Below are positions 22,650 through 32,202 of a DNA stretch of 64,000 nt, piece by piece. Numbering within the stretch: the first letter of the stretch is position 1; each line of letters opens with the position of its first letter. Source of the stretch: Neodothiora populina (lineage: Eukaryota); the NCBI RefSeq assembly GCF_041146345.1, contig NW_027191406.1, positions 930,001 to 994,000 on the forward strand. Direction: 5' to 3'. The position numbers and the translations under genes were made by a program. The notes under the pieces are model-generated. The model was not told the DNA's origin, ran no database searches, and saw only the letters and a program-made list of their open reading frames with translations.

Positions 22650-23871
22650 AGGGTGCAATAGCTTAGGATCCTGATCAACTACTCCTCGATCAGGGTTAGG
22701 AGCTGCTTCTTCTTCATATCCATCTGTGCCTGATCTGCCTTCTGAAACCGTGAACCGTACTTTCTCTGATAAAACTTATTTCTTGGTATGGGGAAAGGGC
22801 GTCTGCTGCCCATGAACCCCCTTTCCCTGCCCGTCAGCCTATTGGCTATCTGCACCCAGGACCACCTGTTGACGTCCATGCCCTTGCTGCAATCACCTTT
22901 TTCTACTCAGGGCCTCTGCGGCTTATCAGCTTCGCTTCTTACTCGAATATCTTATTTCACGAATTTCCATAAATGGTGGCATTGGCCAGGCATTCTGTTT
23001 ACGCCTTTGTGGATCAGCCTGGTGTCGACTGACTCTACACTTCCGAACGAACAAGACCTGTTGCCACGTGTGCAGCCAGTGTCTAGAAGCGTGAGCGTGC
23101 ATATCTGACCCATGAGTCTGGTAGATTACCAGCAACGCAAACAACTGTGGTACATCTCATCTGTAGCCCTTTGCAAACCGAGGGTCATGACTTATCTCAG
23201 CTTACTTCATCTAACATTATCATCATCAGCGGGTTCCGCTGGACACGACTCGGGTCTCAGCTCTGTTCCGGAGTTTTGTCCTTAGCCCGCCGTTCGCCGC
23301 CATATCTCTCATTATTTTACCACTGTCCCTTCTCTACTGCGACGGTACCTCGGGTGCCTCGCATGTAATGTCACCAAACAACAACTTGTACTTGCGGATA
23401 TGCACAAAAGGGTGAGAAGTATATCAGATGCTGCATGCACCTTAGCTCTCTTTTGTATGCCATCGAAACATCTTGCAGACTTCTGGAAGGGCTTGGCTAC
23501 CCATGTACCCAGCGGCCCACAGCAGTAGCTGAACTATGATACCTAAGGTACTGTACCTTACCTTGCCTGCCCTGTGTGCTGCACTTTTCTGTCCTGCTGA
23601 GGGTGTTCCCGGGGAGGAGGTTCCTCTCCGCCGGCAAGCAGCCCCACTCAGGGTAGCCCTATACAAGTACAAGCTCGGCAAGTTTTATGGGAAACGTTGG
23701 AGCTCGACCCTAGGACGAGGATGCTGCTGTTGTGCTAATAACCATGCTTCCAATTTCCCCATGATATAGAAACCCATGCGCCAAAGTGAATGCCTACTAC
23801 CGGTCCGCGCGCTCGAAGTGTTATAAAATATGCGAACCTCGGTTCGTCCAGAGATATTACTGTCAGCACGA

Positions 23872-24971
23872 TCACACCTCGTCCATGGTCCCGGCTGGCT
23901 CTTCATCGTCCGCACTGTCATAACTTCCTACGCTGCTCATCTCGTCATCGTCCTCCGAGTCCTCTCCCGCGTCGTCTGCGGCCTCCTTGGACGCATACTT
24001 GGTCACGTATTCTACCTTTCATCAGTATGCCAGTAATCTTCGACTGTTCTGTATGCTTCCCATCCTCTTACCTTTGACCTTTACATCGTAATTTTTCGGA
24101 TCCCTCATCATCAATGCCGCGGCTTCTCCGTTGAGCGGATCCGTCGGGTTTGGATATCGGAGTAGTTGTGGAAGGAAAACCTCAAAGATGTTGACCATGT
24201 CGTACATCGGCGACCAGGTTTGGTTGATCACATCGAGACAAACACTGCCCGACCTAGAGATGAGGAACGATGGTCAGCTCTATTCATATACGGACACGGA
24301 GGACCATAAGGTATAGGTACATAGGGCATCTTACAATTCATCGATGTTTGGGTGGAATATGCGATTAACAAATCCGATACTTGGACTCTTGTAAGGGTAC
24401 TGATCAGGTAGCTCCACGTGTATCTTCCATAGTCCGCCGGCAAAAGGTGCTAGGAGATGTCAGCGCCGTCTCGATCCTTTGCGATGCTGTCCGTACTCTC
24501 TTCAGGTCCCTTGAACCGAACATAAAACTCTTGCCTAATTATGGTCAGTCAGATGGAGAGACTTTTGCGACGATGTTATTGCGTAGGAAAACTGACACTA
24601 TCAAAGTAAATCAGTAGGATGCTTTTACAAAATGTAGCGAATTGAACAGCTGCAAGTGCCATCATTTGTTAAAGGGAAGTCATACTGTTATCGTTGACTA
24701 GAGTAACCTCATAATCACTCATGAGCCTGGTGCTCTTGGTCAGTATGTAGATTCGCTCGGACCTTCAACGCCCTCGACGCGACTATGCAAGTGATTGTAC
24801 ATACATCCTGCCATTATGTCAGTACTTGCAGATTATTGTACTTGTCGACTACGACCTACTTCATGACCTGTTACGCATAACAAGATCTGTCAGCAGCGTA
24901 TTCTTCACCCCGATCGCCAGTATGCTGCTTGGACCTACGTCTGTTTCGATCCGACGCTTTGGACTACTCAT
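23872..24971 (-). CDS. UBC8: Ubiquitin-conjugating enzyme E2 Ubc8/UBE2H, 9 exons, 186 aa
   Basis: Exons 24971-24939, 24867-24860, 24807-24805, 24726-24686, 24597, 24534-24497, 24449-24335, 24253-24072 and 24011-23872 total 561 nt. They give [44 protein letters not shown]...[23 protein letters not shown]... with an acidic tail. Confidence 0.95.
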
Positions 24972-27015
24972 TTTTGCAACACCGCCACTACCTTTCGGTC
25001 TTGCTCTTGTGTCCGATGATCAGGTCTGATCGCTGTTGCTTATGGTAGCGAGGTGACCCTGGGTCTCAGTGGTGTATAGTAGCTATTGATGCCGGTGATG
25101 GTCCGCAGGTGCTGCGGCGTCTCTATAAGCTGATGGGTGAGGAGTCTGGCTTGACAGCCAGAAATGGACAGAGTGAGGATGATAATGTGGACGAGGTTGA
25201 TGATATCCGGGGATAACGAGAAACACAAAGTAATAGAGGGGTAGGTAAGAATATGGAGTCGAAGGTGAGATTGTGGTCTGACGACACCGAAGGGCTTAGG
25301 TTCGTGATCATACCAAGCATCCTGACGATAAGAGCCGATAAGGGTAGGGTGCCTCTAAGGCAGGCACGTGAATGCGCAAATAAGGCTACGCACAGCACGT
25401 GAACAATTGCCCGTGCCACCGAGGCAGGACTGGACGTACAGTCAGGTAACCATCACAACTTGATAGACACTGTACGGAGAGCCCCAGACGAATGATTATA
25501 TGCTGAATAAACACGGGTGCATACCTCACTGTAGCTTGCAACACAGACTGTACTACAGACTAAGGCAAGGTACCTTAGGGTATAAGGTAACTCTTGCTGG
25601 CACATGGAGTGGTGCTGCGTCACATTTCGATCACCAGACGCTGCGATTCCCGGAACTCTCGGCTCGGTCAGACTCGACTCTTTCCCCATATGTGGTAGGC
25701 TCGGCGACTGTGATCTAAGCTTCCGCTGAGGGCAATTGAATTGACCTTTCCCGGGAAATGTAACGAACGGCGAAATACAATGTGAGATAAAGTAATCAGA
25801 TCCTGCGTCGATGCAAGATAGATCCATAGAGGGTCCGATGGGTGGGGCAGTGGACGGTGTGTAACGGTAGACTTCCCAGGCTGCACTCCCTCAACAAGGC
25901 GTACGATACAGTACCGCATCTGCACTATAACAGGTTCTGCCCAATGTCCAACAATGTCACTTTTGTATTGAATCCTCGTCAATACAGAGCGACTTCCCGC
26001 CTAGGAAATAAAGGCAGAGTGAGCATAGGGAAGAACCTGATGACAGGCACAAGCATGAGCACGGACGAAGATATCTTGGGTGCGAGTGGATGCGTCTGAA
26101 ACTTGGCCCACGCACAGGCCCCAAAACCCGTTAGTCCAGCTCCTCGGTGCTTTAACACACGGTCGGCGATCTGCTGGTCACGAAGTGCTGCAGGGGGACA
26201 AGGGTGTGGCGGCCTCAAGGTCGTCAGCGTGGATTCTGTCAGTGTGACTTGACGGCTGTGGCGCCGCGTGTATACACAGAGTAATTTCAAAGTACCGGTA
26301 CTTTACCGGGCTGGTGGTGGAGCACAGTATAGACCAACGGGGGGACATGAATGTACAGCATACCGTACAGTACCTTACGAGAAAGCAACCGCAAGTCATG
26401 TAGCACGCAAGAGGTAAGGTACTAATGTACGTGGGTAAACTAAGGCACAGAGTACCGCGCAATACTTGTACCGTAAAAAGAATGCGGGTAGTGGGAAGAA
26501 TCTGCCTGCACACTGCACAATGCACAGTCGCTGCTTGCGCAGATCAGCACTCTCCACGTTGATCGCATTCATGCTGTTTGCGCGTTGCTTCTTTCAACCA
26601 ATTCTGGATCCTTCGTCCCCACGGGCTCCCTTTGTTAATGCCTTGCGGCTCTGCTGAGGCTCTGCTAGGGTAGAGGAGTGAACAAAGTTCTCCGTTCCCA
26701 CTCTGTGCTGGTCTGGCCTCGACCTTTCCCTTGGGCGAGTGTCAAGACAGAAAAAACAGTGAAACCTCGCATCGTACTGTATGGACCTTTAGACGTGGGA
26801 CTTGAATCGGGATCCTTGGCTTCGGCGTGGCAGCTTCCCGCCGCTTCATCTCAACCAAGAGGTTATTTTCGCTTTGATTCCCTTGCCGAACCAAATTCAT
26901 ATCAACGTGGCAAAGCAGTTGTTTCGATCAGCACCGTTTCTCTCTCGCTCCCAGTCTCTCTCTTCCCCGTTCCCGTACCCAGCGTTACGGACAGAGGGCC
27001 AGCGACGGGCTACGA

Positions 27016-27041: not shown

Positions 27042-27500
27042 CAAGTGCAGGCATCATCACCTACTGCCGATATTCGAGATTGAGTTTGCGTTTTCCTTTC
27101 CCGGTCCATTTGTGGAGTTCAGTCCGCACAACACAACCTAACGTCGCACCCCTCTGCGCCACGCTGCTGTCGACCTCGTGTCGCGACCTCTTCATCCTCA
27201 GGTCGTCAGGTCTCTGACTTGATCATACCACACAGCGCTGTGCTCTTCGAAGCGCTCTCACGGCATTGCATATGCTGGCGCGATAGCAGTCCCAATCGAC
27301 AACAGGTCAAGAGGTGGGTGGCAAAAGGCGCTATTAGGTGCCGATAGAATCGGCCCCCGCGCACACAGCTGCGACCCGACAACCTCGACTCTGAATTACA
27401 AATCTGGCTCCCTCCCACGCAGGAGACTGCCATCGTACTGACTCACACGAGCCGAGTCTGGCAACCCTCTGCCGCACACCCTCAAGGCACATCGCGCGGC

Positions 27501-30500
27501 ATGCGGCCGGACTCTTCGCCCAGGGAGCGGCATGGCGCAGCAGCGGGCTTTACTTCCTCACTGTCTCCTGTCGAGAGTGACACAGCGTCGCCTCACGCAG
27601 ATGAGCCGGTAGCCTCTGCTACCACGAGGCATCAGCCCCGGTCGGATGCTTCGAGATACCAAACAGACACCGCGGGCCAACCAGGCGGAGGTGTCACCAC
27701 CTCGTCTCAGAACACCGATGCTCTAAGTCCTGGTGCAACTGATAGAGTCTTCCCTATCAGGTCCGTTGTGTCGGTCGATCCTACTCCTACACCGTCACAT
27801 CGCTCCGACACTAGCGGTGGCGGCTACTTTGGTTACCATGCATCCCAAAACAGAAGGTATAGTGTTGCCAGTCATTCAGACAAGTCCGTCCAGAACACCC
27901 CCGCCAAGCCGATGAAGAACGAAGACTACAAATCAGACGCTGCATTATCCGTCGAGCAGGACGACCGCAGCCGGCAGGGTTCTACCTCAACGAGCGGCGG
28001 ACAATCAAAAAGTGGCGATCAACAACACCGACATCCGCCCCAAGTCTTTCAGGATATCGCCGCCAACAGGCCTGCGAGTGAACGCACAACAATAGGCTCC
28101 AGCTCTCAGCAACCGTCACTTCAGGCAGGATCGATCAAGAGTACTCAGAGTGACTTGGACGAAACAGGCACGGGGCTCATCACTGCAAGGTTCAAGCACG
28201 TCGTATCCGAAGGTGGTCATGCTATCATTACCGGCAGAGATGGTGAAACTCTTCAGAGATGTGAGGATGAGCCGATTCACATTCCTGGCGCTGTGCAAGG
28301 GTTTGGTCTTCTAATCGCTTTTGAGGAGGAGGCTGAAGGTAAACTCGTCGTCAAAATTGTGAGCGAGAATTCGAAGAGAATGATCGGCTATTCCCCAAAG
28401 CAGCTATTCGCTCTGGAAAGCTTCACGGATATTCTATCTGAAGAGCAGACCGATAATCTACTGGACCATGTCGACTTTATCCGAGATGAGGACGCTGATG
28501 TCACCACAAACGGGCCTGAGGTCTTCACCATGTCCATCCGATCACCCCAGCGTAAGGTGCAAAAGCTCTGGTGCGCAATGCACATCAACGAGCGCAACCC
28601 TAACCTTGTCATATGTGAATTTGAATTGGAGGACGACGCGGTGCATCCTCTGGTGCCGACCAGCGAGCATGGCGAGGAGCCGCCCGAAGATACATTACAA
28701 AGCGATCCAACGCCACAAGAGCTCGCCGAGAGTACCGAAAACTCCAGTCGACCTCTGAGGGTACTTCGCAGTGCAAGGAAGCGTAAAGGAGAAGCTGCAG
28801 CCATGGAGGTCTTCAACATCATGTCGCAGGTGCAAGAGCAACTTGCTGCTGCGCCGAATCTCGAGAAGTTCCTCAAAATCCTAGTCGGTGTAGTCAAAGA
28901 GTTGACAGGTTTCCACCGCGTCATGATTTACCAGTTCGACAGTCAATGGAATGGCCGTGTCGTTACCGAACTTGTGGATCCCCGAGCCACCAAAGACCTC
29001 TACAAAGGGCTTAATTTCCCAGCATCTGACATCCCTAAACAGGCCCGCGACCTTTACAAGCTGAACAAAGTACGAATGTTATACGACCGCGACCAGGAAA
29101 CTGCTCGTCTTGTGTGCCGCACTGTTGAGGATCTAGAAACTCCCCTAGACCTCACTTATTCTTACCTCCGCGCCATGTCACCAATTCATCTCAAATATCT
29201 CACCAATATGGCTGTCCGATCGTCCATGTCGATCTCAATCAGCGCTTTCGATGAGCTCTGGGGTTTGATCGCTTGTCATTCATACGGATCTCGCGGCATG
29301 CGCGTTTCCTTCCCAATTCGCAAGATGTGTCGATTGGTTGGGGAGACTGCGTCTCGCAACATCGAGCGGCTGTCGTATGCTTCTCGTCTACAAGCACGCA
29401 AGCTCATCAACACAGTACCGACCTCAAACAATCCTTCTGGATACATCATCGCCTCATCAGATGACCTATTGAAGCTCTTTGATGCAGATTTTGGCATGCT
29501 GTCTATACGCGACGAGACCAAGATTCTTGGTCACTTGGAGCATTCACAGGAGGCCCTGGCGATGCTCGAGTATCTTCGGATGCGTAGAGTAACAAATGTG
29601 ATGACATCGCAAGATCTGCGCCTCGACTTCCCGGACCTTCGCTACGCCCCTGGATTTCGCGTCATAGCTGGTCTCCTCTTGGTTCCACTCTCCAGCGGAG
29701 GTCAAGACTTCATTGTTTTCTTCCGTAAAGGTCAATTAAAGGAAGTCAAGTGGGCTGGCAATCCTTATGAGAAGTTCATCAAGGAGGGCACCGAGGGATA
29801 TTTAGAGCCGAGGAAGAGTTTCCGTACCTGGAGCGAAACGGTCGTCGGCAAGTGTCGAGAGTGGACCGAAGAAGAGATCGAGACTGCCGCCGTGCTCTGT
29901 CTTGTCTACGGTAAATTCATTGACGTCTGGCGACAGAAAGAGGCGGCACTACACAACAGCCAGTTGACTAGACTGTTGCTGGCTAATTCAGCTCACGAAG
30001 TTCGGACGCCGCTCAACGCGATCATCAACTACCTCGAAATAGCTTTGGAAGGAGCACTAGATCAAGAGACGCGCGAGAATCTCTCCAAGTCTCACTCAGC
30101 TTCGAAGTCTCTTATCTACGTTATCAATGATCTTCTCGACCTCACCAAGACAGAGGAAGGCGGTGAGCTGATAAAGGAGGAGGTCTTTGATCTTTCGTCA
30201 ACGCTCAAAGAAGCGACCGAGCCATTCTCAGGCGATGCACGACGAAAGCAAATTGACTTTGAAGTGGTAGAACACCCTGGGCTACCAAAGCATGTCATTG
30301 GCGACCAAAGGAAAATTCGCCAGGCAATTTCCAACATTACCGCCAATGCCATTCAGAACACGATACGCGGTGGTGTCGAGGTTCAGATGTATCTGGCCTC
30401 TCGTGATGAACGGCACGTTGAAGTGGAAGTCAGCGTCCAAGATACCGGTGCTGGCATGAGTGACAAGAAACTTGATTCACTGTTCCGCGAGCTCGAGCAA

Positions 30501-32202
30501 GTGCAGAGCGAAGCTATTGACATGCTCGATGGTCCCAAGCAACCCGAGGACAGCCGTATCGAAGCAGACCAGAAGTCCGAACACAAACGTACACTTGGTC
30601 TTGGTCTTGCAGTGGTTGCGCGTATCGTTAGGAACATGAATGGGCAGATGAGATTGAAGTCAGAAGAAAACAAAGGCTCCAGATTTGTCCTTCAATTCCC
30701 ATTCGACCTTCCGGACTCCGAGCCGCAACAGCAGTCTGTCGGTCGCCCTTCGTCCATTTCGGGCTCAACCTCGGGCTCAGAGACCCCTCACGGTGACATG
30801 GGATCATTCGATACTGGTGAAGTGACGCTTGTGAAACCGCGACGCAGTTCGGCCGAGGGGACAATAATGAGTCGCAGGACGAGTCAGGAAAGTGTTCACA
30901 GCAAACGCAGTCTTCGGAGTTTGAAGTCAAATCGAAGTGTTGCTAGTGCGTCATCGGCACGAAGCGAGGCTGATAGGCTGATCGATGCCATTCAAGCACC
31001 AATGGAGACTGCGAGTGCACCGGATCGATCTCTGACTCATCGAGCTAGTAGTAAGGGTAGCATGCCGAGGCCGAGACTTGACCACAGAAGTAGCACTTCT
31101 GCCGCTCTTTCTGGTGGAGGTCCGCTCCGACCACGATCTCACAGCACCGATGTCGCGAGCCTGCCAGAACAGTCACGGCAGCAATACGCTGATCCTCCCG
31201 GACAAAGCTCTGTGCAGGACCAAAGAACTCCCATCAGAGCCGTCAGAATGCCCGATGAGCTCGATGCTACGTCTCCTACGGCGCATATTGAAACACGCCC
31301 GCCACAATTCGCGATCGAGAAGAACACGGGGTCTCAGGATCAGGATCATAGCGAACAACAGCCACCCACTGCTGATCACTTACGTGTGCTCGTGGCAGAA
31401 GATGATCCGGTCAACAGCAGAATCATCAAGAAAAGGCTGGACAAAATGGGTCACGAAACCTATCTGACAACTAATGGAGAAGAATGCTCGAGTCTACACG
31501 GAGACAAAGGTGGCTATTTCGATGTGGTCCTGATGGACATGCAGGTAAGTGCTACGGATCTCAACTACAAGATTATACTTACTGACTGACTCTGCGTCTC
31601 AGATGCCCATTGTTGATGGTTTGACGTCGACGAAGATGATTCGTTCCCTCGAGAAAACGACACCTTCGCATACATTGTCCAAGAGAGCATCATTAAATGG
31701 ACGCATCCCTGTTATAGCTGTATCGGCCTCGCTTTTGGAAAGAGATCGACAGAAATACATTGACGCTGGGTTCGATGGCTGGATATTGAAGCCGATTTCA
31801 TTCCCTCGCCTCTCCGAAATTTTGACTGGTATAGTAGATCGAGACATTCGACGACGCAATTTATACCGGACCGGCGAATGGGAACGAGGTGGCTGGTTCG
31901 AGGAGTCTCAGGCAGACGTCTTCGCGGCAGACACAGAGCCCGAAAGTGAGAGACAGCCCATGTCAAACCCCAGCGAGGAGGTGAAGATAGCCGCTGTTAG
32001 CGACGACCCACAATTGAAGGAAGACACGGACAGCAAGCAGACTCAAGAACAGCAGAGGATGGCTGCGGAGCAAGAAGCTGATCGACAGAATGACGACGAT
32101 GCTCAGTCTTCTAAGCAACAAGACACGCCTGTAACGACAGAAGAGGGCGATGCGCAATCAGTTGAGGAACAGACTCCACAGAGATCAGATGAAGTGGAAT
32201 AG
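27501..32202 (+). CDS. fphA: Fungal phytochrome (PAS-GAF-PHY, histidine kinase, receiver)
   Basis: Chromophore Cys motif RCEDEPIHIPGAVQ, RVMIYQF, FPASDIPKQAR, PHY-tongue PRKSF, H-box SAHEVRTPLN, VQDTGAG, GLGLA and receiver AEDD...LMDMQMP...K. Intron 31545-31602. Confidence 0.95.

Follow-up and report, generated by a model that had tools for sequence, protein, structure and literature searches.

The window analysed here is a stretch of 64,000 nucleotides (nt) from the fungus Neodothiora populina (NCBI RefSeq assembly GCF_041146345.1, contig NW_027191406.1, positions 930,001 to 994,000 of the forward strand), a species that is placed in the Dothideales, Dothideomycetes. Its minus strand carries a gene for a ubiquitin-conjugating enzyme (E2) of the UBC8/UBE2H type, and the T at position 24597 very probably forms by itself the fifth of the nine exons of this Dothideales UBC8/UBE2H ortholog, a one-nucleotide exon that is spliced in constitutively. 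The gene was modelled by hand and by protein-guided spliced alignment. Slashes mark splice sites in the sequences given below, and the parts of the gene are as follows:

23872..24971, minus strand: coding sequence of the UBC8/UBE2H-type ubiquitin-conjugating enzyme from ATG to TGA; 9 exons, 8 introns, 561 nt, 186 amino acids (aa); manual model and protein-guided spliced alignment
24939..24971, minus strand: exon 1, 33 nt; manual model and spliced alignment
24860..24867, minus strand: exon 2, the 8-nt micro-exon GTCATGAA; manual model and spliced alignment
24805..24807, minus strand: exon 3, the 3-nt micro-exon GAT, which supplies the last base of the Lys14 codon and the first two of Met15
24686..24726, minus strand: exon 4, 41 nt; its 3' end AAC A provides the first base of Met29
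24598..24685, minus strand: intron 4, 88 nt, phase 1; donor GTATGA, acceptor TAG
24597, minus strand: exon 5, a single T, 1 nt; middle base of Met29 (A-T-G)
24535..24596, minus strand: intron 5, 62 nt, phase 2; donor GTCAGT (pyrimidine at +3), acceptor TAG
24497..24534, minus strand: exon 6, 38 nt; opens with G CAA GAG TTT (last base of Met29, then QEF)
24335..24449, minus strand: exon 7, 115 nt; manual model and spliced alignment
24072..24253, minus strand: exon 8, 182 nt; carries the stretch with the putative catalytic Cys
23872..24011, minus strand: exon 9, 140 nt including the stop codon; acidic C-terminal tail
24530..24685, minus strand: rival single intron GTATGA..AAG, 156 nt, obtained by enumeration; the protein would read VNDN-K-FYVRF

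At the site, the minus strand reads ...GATAACA/GTATGA...TACTGATTTACTTTGATAG/T/GTCAGT...GACTGACCATAATTAG/GCAAGAGTTT, as taken directly from the DNA with the coordinates checked by a script. In the segment TAG/T/GTCAGT, which spans 24600-24591, the acceptor AG of intron 4 and the donor GT of intron 5 abut the single T. Intron 4 contains the branch-like motif CTGAT, the A of which lies at 24611 and is the 14th base from the 3' end, and intron 5 contains overlapping CTGAC branch-like motifs, with one A at 24549 (15 nt before the acceptor) and another at 24545 (11 nt). All eight introns of the gene are of the GT-AG type and 47-88 nt long, and introns 4 and 5 (88 and 62 nt) lie inside the length range of the gene's remaining introns. 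An earlier reading made from the DNA letters (the sequence-only reading) had placed two introns (24685-24598, 88 nt; 24596-24535, 62 nt) around the T at 24597, and these coordinates proved to be exact. Moreover, its count of nine exons that total 561 nt and end at the right stop was confirmed by translation to 186 aa: the exons of 33, 8, 3, 41, 1, 38, 115, 182 and 140 nt form a reading frame that is free of stops up to the TGA at 23872. If the T is omitted, the frame breaks, the translation continues as VNDNSKSFMF... and several stops follow. The 561-nt open reading frame (ORF) exists only with the T included.

The identity of the gene product was assessed by comparison with known proteins and structures. 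Exon 8 matches the Pfam family UQ_con (PF00179; E 1.7e-14), and the translation contains the active-site stretch HPNIDELSGSVCLD of the HPN..C type, whose Cys in exon 8 we take to be catalytic from what is generally known of E2 enzymes. The closeness to Ubc8/UBE2H was measured on the ortholog P0089, which aligns across all 186 aa of the window model and stands in for the joined protein of the window. Among solved structures, P0089 matches yeast Ubc8 (8pmq_E) with an E value of 1e-71 and human UBE2H with 9e-68, whereas other E2s reach about 1e-28. Judged by these matches, the predicted gene product is a UBC8/UBE2H ortholog with an acidic C-terminal tail. Ubc8 is the E2 that works with the GID (GID/CTLH) ligase. 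The yeast chain 8pmq_E reads LINDSMQEFHVKF and thus has Met at the equivalent position, so that this residue is conserved, as the sequence-only reading had said of yeast Ubc8. Met29 is also invariant in alignment A1, which is made up of M-type proteins. An annotated UBC8 model of the source species with 100% identity was not found among the best 120 exon-8 matches or in 10 clusters, the matches being cluster representatives.

A purpose-written protein-to-DNA spliced aligner permits split codons and one-base exons and penalises each intron by 12 and each gap by 7. With P0089 as its guide, it arrived at precisely the nine-exon model, with introns at 29.1 and 29.2 (residue.phase). By enumeration, six open-frame GT-AG solutions with one or two introns were obtained for the interval 24726-24497, and VNDNMQEF results from the model with the one-nucleotide exon only. 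It had been claimed that treating the region as one intron shifts the frame; this holds for the TAG acceptor at 24535 but not for an intron from 24685 to 24530, which uses an AAG acceptor and keeps the frame. At the level of the mRNA, the junction is expected to read GATAACATGCAAGAG if the T is included, GATAACAAGTTTTAT if the AAG acceptor is used and GATAACAGCAAGAG if the T is skipped. Run X1 consists of DNA contigs; its pieces 23600-23877 and 24259-24521 pass unspliced through introns 6 and 7, and neither of them covers the one-nucleotide exon. A search of 23600-25300 against Rfam gave two weak, chance-level matches (E 0.29 and 0.32), both far under the gathering scores and neither located at the site. 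Likewise, the RNA fold of 24520-24700 showed nothing unusual (z +1.4), with equally good or better folds in 190 of 200 shuffles. Neither an RNA structure nor a known RNA family is involved at the site.

The same layout was found in other fungal loci. For this purpose, metagenome contigs were scanned with alignment A1, and 80 loci were kept from 373 confirmed stretches. The scan relied on the peptide patterns VNDNMQE and MSDYEVTL, which favour loci without introns in this codon, so that frequencies cannot be read from the counts that follow. By pattern, AAY/AGY-ATG-CAR (here the slash separates alternative codons) is contiguous in 63 of the 80 loci. Introns are present in 44 of the 80 loci, and 36 have no intron before residue 150; none of these 36 deviates at the site (L032 and L038 were not resolved by pattern). 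Eleven loci (L043, L052, L055, L058, L059, L060, L062, L063, L067, L069 and L077) show the arrangement A/GT..YAG/T/GT..YAG/G, with sub-introns of 48-85 nt and 50-74 nt. Since L058 and L059 are identical and a single inserted base separates L060 from L062, the eleven loci represent nine distinct sequences. With the window included, YAG/T/GT is conserved in all 10 distinct two-intron sequences, which answers the proposal of the sequence-only reading to look for AG-T-GT in related UBC8 loci, and both acceptors are preceded by a YTRAY motif, at a distance of 11-21 nt, in 10 of 10. The introns differ in sequence, so that conservation is confined to the signals. The arrangement is more frequent than expected by chance: in shuffles of the window interval, an internal AGTGT with at least 40 nt on either side arises in 4.5% of cases, and the figure per locus is 1.1-7.5%; the product of these chances, 3e-15, can serve only as a guide because the loci are homologous.

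Evidence for the T in a mature form comes from a relative, in which an intron-free contig (L011, 1142 nt) can be set against a genomic locus (L055). The exons of the two are 95-100% identical and both untranslated regions 98-99.5%. In a blastn comparison, position 440 of L011 alone lies between the match to exon 4, which extends to 439, and the match to exon 6, which starts at 441; thus, L011 carries the T between its exon matches to L055. When L055 is spliced with two introns and the T, 1128 of 1142 bases match L011 and the junction reads GATAGC-ATG-CAAGAG. The models of L055 with an extra Ser (NSM) or with the T skipped require one more gap each against L011. The intron-free contigs were read as transcripts because all introns are absent from them, 2 of the 36 end in A-runs, and L011 corresponds to L055 minus the intervening segments.

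Orthologs were collected as the best 120 matches of an exon-8 search, 65 of them unnamed and 55 named and genome-annotated, and the comparison of the N-terminal part rests on these exon-8 matches. VNDNMQEF is present in 16 of the 65 unnamed proteins, mostly as uninterrupted ORFs on contigs of about 1 kb, and VNDN-M-QEF in only 5 of the 55 named ones. The 50 deviating named models lack exon 4 (18 models), read on into the intron (16), join exon 4 to exon 7 with a loss of 13 residues (7), contain the frameshift that follows from skipping the T (VNDNSK..; 4), use the alternative with K (P0060 and P0069), read VNDN-S-M-QEF (2) or replace M by another residue (1). Furthermore, 8 of the 55 named models read VMK-LMSDY, in which Met15 is missing, as expected from in-frame skipping of the 3-nt exon. 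On this comparison, the deviations are signatures of predictor failure at this structure in what we take to be Dothideomycetes, Sordariomycetes, Lecanoromycetes and Leotiomycetes. That gene predictors miss the one-nucleotide exon, as had been stated, is borne out by the 50 of 55 named models that deviate at or before the site. For instance, P0367, an uninterrupted ORF on a 1.19-kb contig that is 93.5% identical to the window protein, reads VNDNMQEF, and the protein of Zalaria obscura (P0009), which represents its 90% cluster and comes from genome annotation, is garbled at the site. Named models that read VNDNM and then run on, such as that of Alternaria panax (P0086), suggest genomes with the phase-2 intron only. 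The proteins P0021 and P0114 are ORFs on contigs of about 2 kb that read VNDNMQEF correctly and run through the intron positions 42.1 and 141.1; they look like RNAs from which the two introns flanking the one-nucleotide exon have been removed and in which others are retained. Since only 5 of 55 named orthologs read VNDN-M-QEF, the models of the GID/CTLH ligase E2 appear to be wrong in many fungal genomes, and they could be repaired by an annotation rule.

Several points weigh against the one-nucleotide exon and have to be set beside this evidence. The mature junction in Neodothiora populina itself is one that we infer, and that the intron-free contigs of about 1 kb are transcripts is likewise a matter of inference. 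L011 and L055 belong to separate data sets and disagree at 14 of 1142 bases; their sources are, by sequence, very close relatives and not proven to be the same genome. The peptide patterns bias the collection of loci as described above, and both the shuffle product and the Fisher tests overstate the independence of related loci. Moreover, the upstream donor is GTATGT in 6 of the 11 two-intron loci (L052, L055, L060, L062, L069 and L077), and the aligner preferred at these six a single intron with AT/GT and an extra Ser (VNDN-S-M-QEF). For L055, this extra-Ser model is ruled out by L011, and the window, with its donor GTATGA, makes it impossible there; it may hold at the other loci. Finally, the frame-preserving single intron 24685-24530 could be used in a minor isoform.

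That the whole region is one intron of 156 nt (24685-24530), with the internal AG/T/GT being fortuitous, is very unlikely as the principal explanation, even though such an intron would be a canonical GT-AG intron that preserves the frame and even though the equivalent junction is used by two annotated orthologs (Parathielavia P0060 and Verticillium P0069). The resulting protein, VNDN-K-FYVRF, would lack M-Q-E, whereas all intron-free contigs read M-Q-E-F, MQEF is retained in yeast and plant relatives, and the QEF codons directly follow the TAG acceptor in every examined locus. All 10 distinct sequences retain the AG/T/GT and the well-spaced branch motifs even though their introns cannot be aligned, and, against a median of 63 nt for the other introns in these genes, an intron of 156 nt would be about 2.5 times as long. 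There is next to no chance that the gene is broken at the site, i.e. that it is a pseudogene or contains a one-base assembly error that the exon merely rationalises. A frameshift error would show the same deficit of one base; however, the layout recurs in nine further distinct sequences from separate data sets, and the remaining exons are all intact, with 86-94% identity to orthologs.

A nested twin intron (stwintron), in which an internal intron is removed first to complete the splice signal of an outer intron, is extremely unlikely here. Such introns do occur in Pezizomycotina, and a stwintron intermediate explains introns that lie 1 nt apart in another gene (PMC5587772). Introns 4 and 5, however, each already have a complete donor, branch motif and acceptor; with every splice signal uninterrupted, the locus does not qualify as a stwintron. 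When the nested reading was checked by hand, removal of an internal GTGTCA..TAG rebuilt an acceptor (..GATA + G) but took out two coding bases and shifted the frame. A zero-length recursive splice site, at which AG directly abuts GT, does not describe the site either: one T stands between them and is needed in the mRNA.

With the T taken as an exon, a single Met codon would be interrupted twice, in phase 1 and in phase 2, by short fungal introns of an ordinary kind. Each of them has its own donor, branch motif and acceptor, so that the mRNA would join AAC A, T and G CAA GAG (N-M-Q-E). No more than about 15 nt separate the branch site (A 24611) and the acceptor of intron 4 from the intron-5 donor, and the factors bound to the 3' end of intron 4 and the U1 particle on intron 5 would collide. 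As both sites could not be fully occupied together, the introns would probably be removed in succession by intron definition, and the sequential removal proposed by the sequence-only reading is a reasonable deduction from the spacing of the signals. The mRNA would be the same whichever intron left first; if it were the upstream one, the process would resemble recursive splicing in which one base is retained. The donors of the two introns differ in composition. At +3, the intron-5 donor has a purine in 4 of 10 distinct sequences versus 110 of 117 other introns (Fisher p 6e-5, with the loci being related) and a pyrimidine in 6 of 10 versus 7 of 117, and the intron-4 donor has A in 10 of 10. As a working hypothesis, the weak intron-5 donor could favour removal of the upstream intron first.

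The sequence-only reading had also put forward skipping of the exon as a possible regulatory switch for the GID-pathway E2. Regulated joining of 24686 to 24534 would produce a frameshifted nonsense mRNA and lower Ubc8 and GID-ligase activity; skipping would create early stops, and the sub-consensus downstream donor (+3) could make inclusion sensitive to conditions. However, no skipped transcript occurs among the 80 loci kept of 373 confirmed stretches, which were collected with search patterns that disfavour such forms, and the NSK.. readings in the databases derive from genome annotation and not from RNA. Moreover, lineages that have lost both introns (e.g. L048 and L056) manage without a switch of this kind. 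We consider such a switch unlikely; nothing in the data points to it and the claim is unsupported.

One-base exons as such are already documented in plants and fungi; a full-text literature search found no report of a one-base exon in UBC8. In Arabidopsis, APC11 contains a single-nucleotide exon for which there is proof from a minigene (PMC4674806), and 1-nt microexons in plant APC11 and VPS55 are conserved across land plants and absent from reference annotations (PMC8831610). The long-read annotation of Coprinopsis cinerea lists 13 one-nt exons in 13 genes (PMC12230235), and a one-nucleotide exon was described in CYP621A of Fusarium, which its authors call the first fungal case (PMC12940212). 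Thus, given the reports on plant APC11 and VPS55, 13 Coprinopsis genes and Fusarium CYP621A, the statement of the sequence-only reading that such exons are very rarely documented was too strong.

These cases resemble UBC8 to different degrees. Plant APC11 and VPS55 share with it the single base between AG and GT, which is essential for the frame, missed by annotation and long conserved, and in some lineages the flanking introns have been lost and the base absorbed into a larger exon. Unlike UBC8, where the base takes the middle position of a Met codon, they concern another kingdom and other genes. The plant examples are supported by RT-PCR, RNA-seq and minigene proof, whereas UBC8 is supported by comparative evidence and by the transcript-like contig of a relative. 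Fusarium CYP621A is, like UBC8, a gene of the Pezizomycotina with AG/N/GT inside an interval that is more than twice the usual intron length; its base is the middle letter of a conserved codon, and the exon was recognised from the phase mismatch of the adjacent exons. It was described from 20 orthologs of one genus and from Sequence Read Archive (SRA) reads, whereas the UBC8 exon appears to be spread across several classes, and its gene contains exons of 3 and 8 nt as well. The Coprinopsis cinerea data show that 1-nt exons are regular though rare in fungal genes, with the difference that this species is a basidiomycete. UBC8, UBE2H and ubiquitin-conjugating enzymes go unmentioned in those supplementary files that were searched, the list of the 13 genes lying outside them.

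A further likeness concerns the origin of introns that occupy neighbouring positions. A 1-nt intron shift between orthologs has been explained by a stwintron intermediate (PMC5587772), and there, as in UBC8, the introns lie one base apart in orthologs and a two-intron form is a possible intermediate. In a stwintron, one intron interrupts the signal of the other and there is no exon base between them, whereas the UBC8 introns are complete and have a coding base between them. The states found for UBC8 comprise the phase-1 intron only (L057), apparently the phase-2 intron only in some lineages, and both or neither in others. The UBC8 form with two introns and the 1-nt exon could therefore act as an intermediate in a 1-nt intron shift. 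UBC8 can also be compared with recursive splicing. Recursive splicing at zero-length exons proceeds through AG/GT ratchet points. The likeness lies in the acceptor that is directly followed by a donor, so that the halves must go stepwise; the difference is that UBC8 retains one base and that its introns are short fungal introns and not parts of a very long intron.

The distribution of the two-intron state was examined on a tree of 138 C-terminal columns, which is weakly resolved and of moderate support (80-97% ultrafast bootstrap). The window, L077, L058, L063, L069 and L055 fall among sequences of the Dothideales and Mycosphaerellales type, and L060 groups with Pleosporales/Botryosphaeriales (96/91), L067 with Lecanoromycetes (80/73 and 94/79) and L043 with Sordariomycetes/Leotiomycetes (82/98). 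Within the Dothideomycetes, the two-intron loci form two groups, and loci without either intron (L048, L056 and L047) adjoin loci with both. The two-intron state appears to be old, with one or both introns having been lost repeatedly in some lineages; the tree fits this view and is no proof of it. Taken together with the donor composition, this allows a tentative joint reading, which is possible though on balance doubtful: the exon would be ancient (dating to the ancestor of Dothideomycetes, Lecanoromycetes and Sordariomycetes/Leotiomycetes) and under selection, the downstream donor would be held weak, which would allow the upstream intron to leave first in an ordered, recursive-type pathway with one base retained, and losses of single introns would mimic a 1-nt slide. 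If this were true, loss of either intron would represent a second route to a 1-nt intron shift, beside the stwintron route.

The UBC8 locus may serve as a natural test system in tractable fungi, which have both introns, one or none of them. Suitable questions would be how the spliceosome deals with an acceptor and a donor that are one base apart, whether there is a fixed order of removal and how introns one base apart originate. The main value lies in the correction of the annotation of a widely mis-modelled gene and in a natural system for minimal exons.

Several further loci differ in the number of introns at or near the site. L057, which lies on a 10.9-kb contig, contains only the phase-1 intron (A/../TG). 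In L014 (a 1062-nt contig; L014:221-281), the segment AAT AT/GTACGT..TAG/G CAG corresponds to the phase-2 intron of the Met codon, and one other intron is present; this contig may be genomic with few introns, or a partly spliced RNA from which the upstream intron is already gone. L066 lies on a contig that is otherwise intron-free and 94% identical to L010, and it has 40 extra bases between AACA and TGCAAGAG (L066:47-90). These bases open like a donor (GTTAGT) and do not end in AG; L066 may represent a defective copy, or an RNA whose processing was aberrant or incomplete. N-terminal solutions of the aligner for L048, L060 and L067 (introns '13.1' and a 243-nt '15.2') look forced and were not used. 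The 'introns' that the aligner placed after residue 150 fall mostly in the variable acidic tail and were likewise not used, except for a 126-nt segment near the end of the coding sequence of L055 (L055:1907-2032). This segment is absent from L011, which suggests an extra intron in the acidic tail that has no counterpart in the window gene.

The gene has two other very small exons, which the sequence-only reading did not flag. The 3-nt exon 3 (GAT) is flanked by AG and GTATGT, and AG/GAT/GT is also found in L043, L052 and L077; the 8-nt exon 2 is also present in L043, L077 and L063. Divergent from the UBC8 gene, the plus strand of the window carries at 27348-31586 an ORF of 1413 aa for a phytochrome-like histidine kinase with PHY, GAF, HisKA, HATPase and receiver domains (precomputed Pfam assignments), which is 100% identical to a Neodothiora populina protein.

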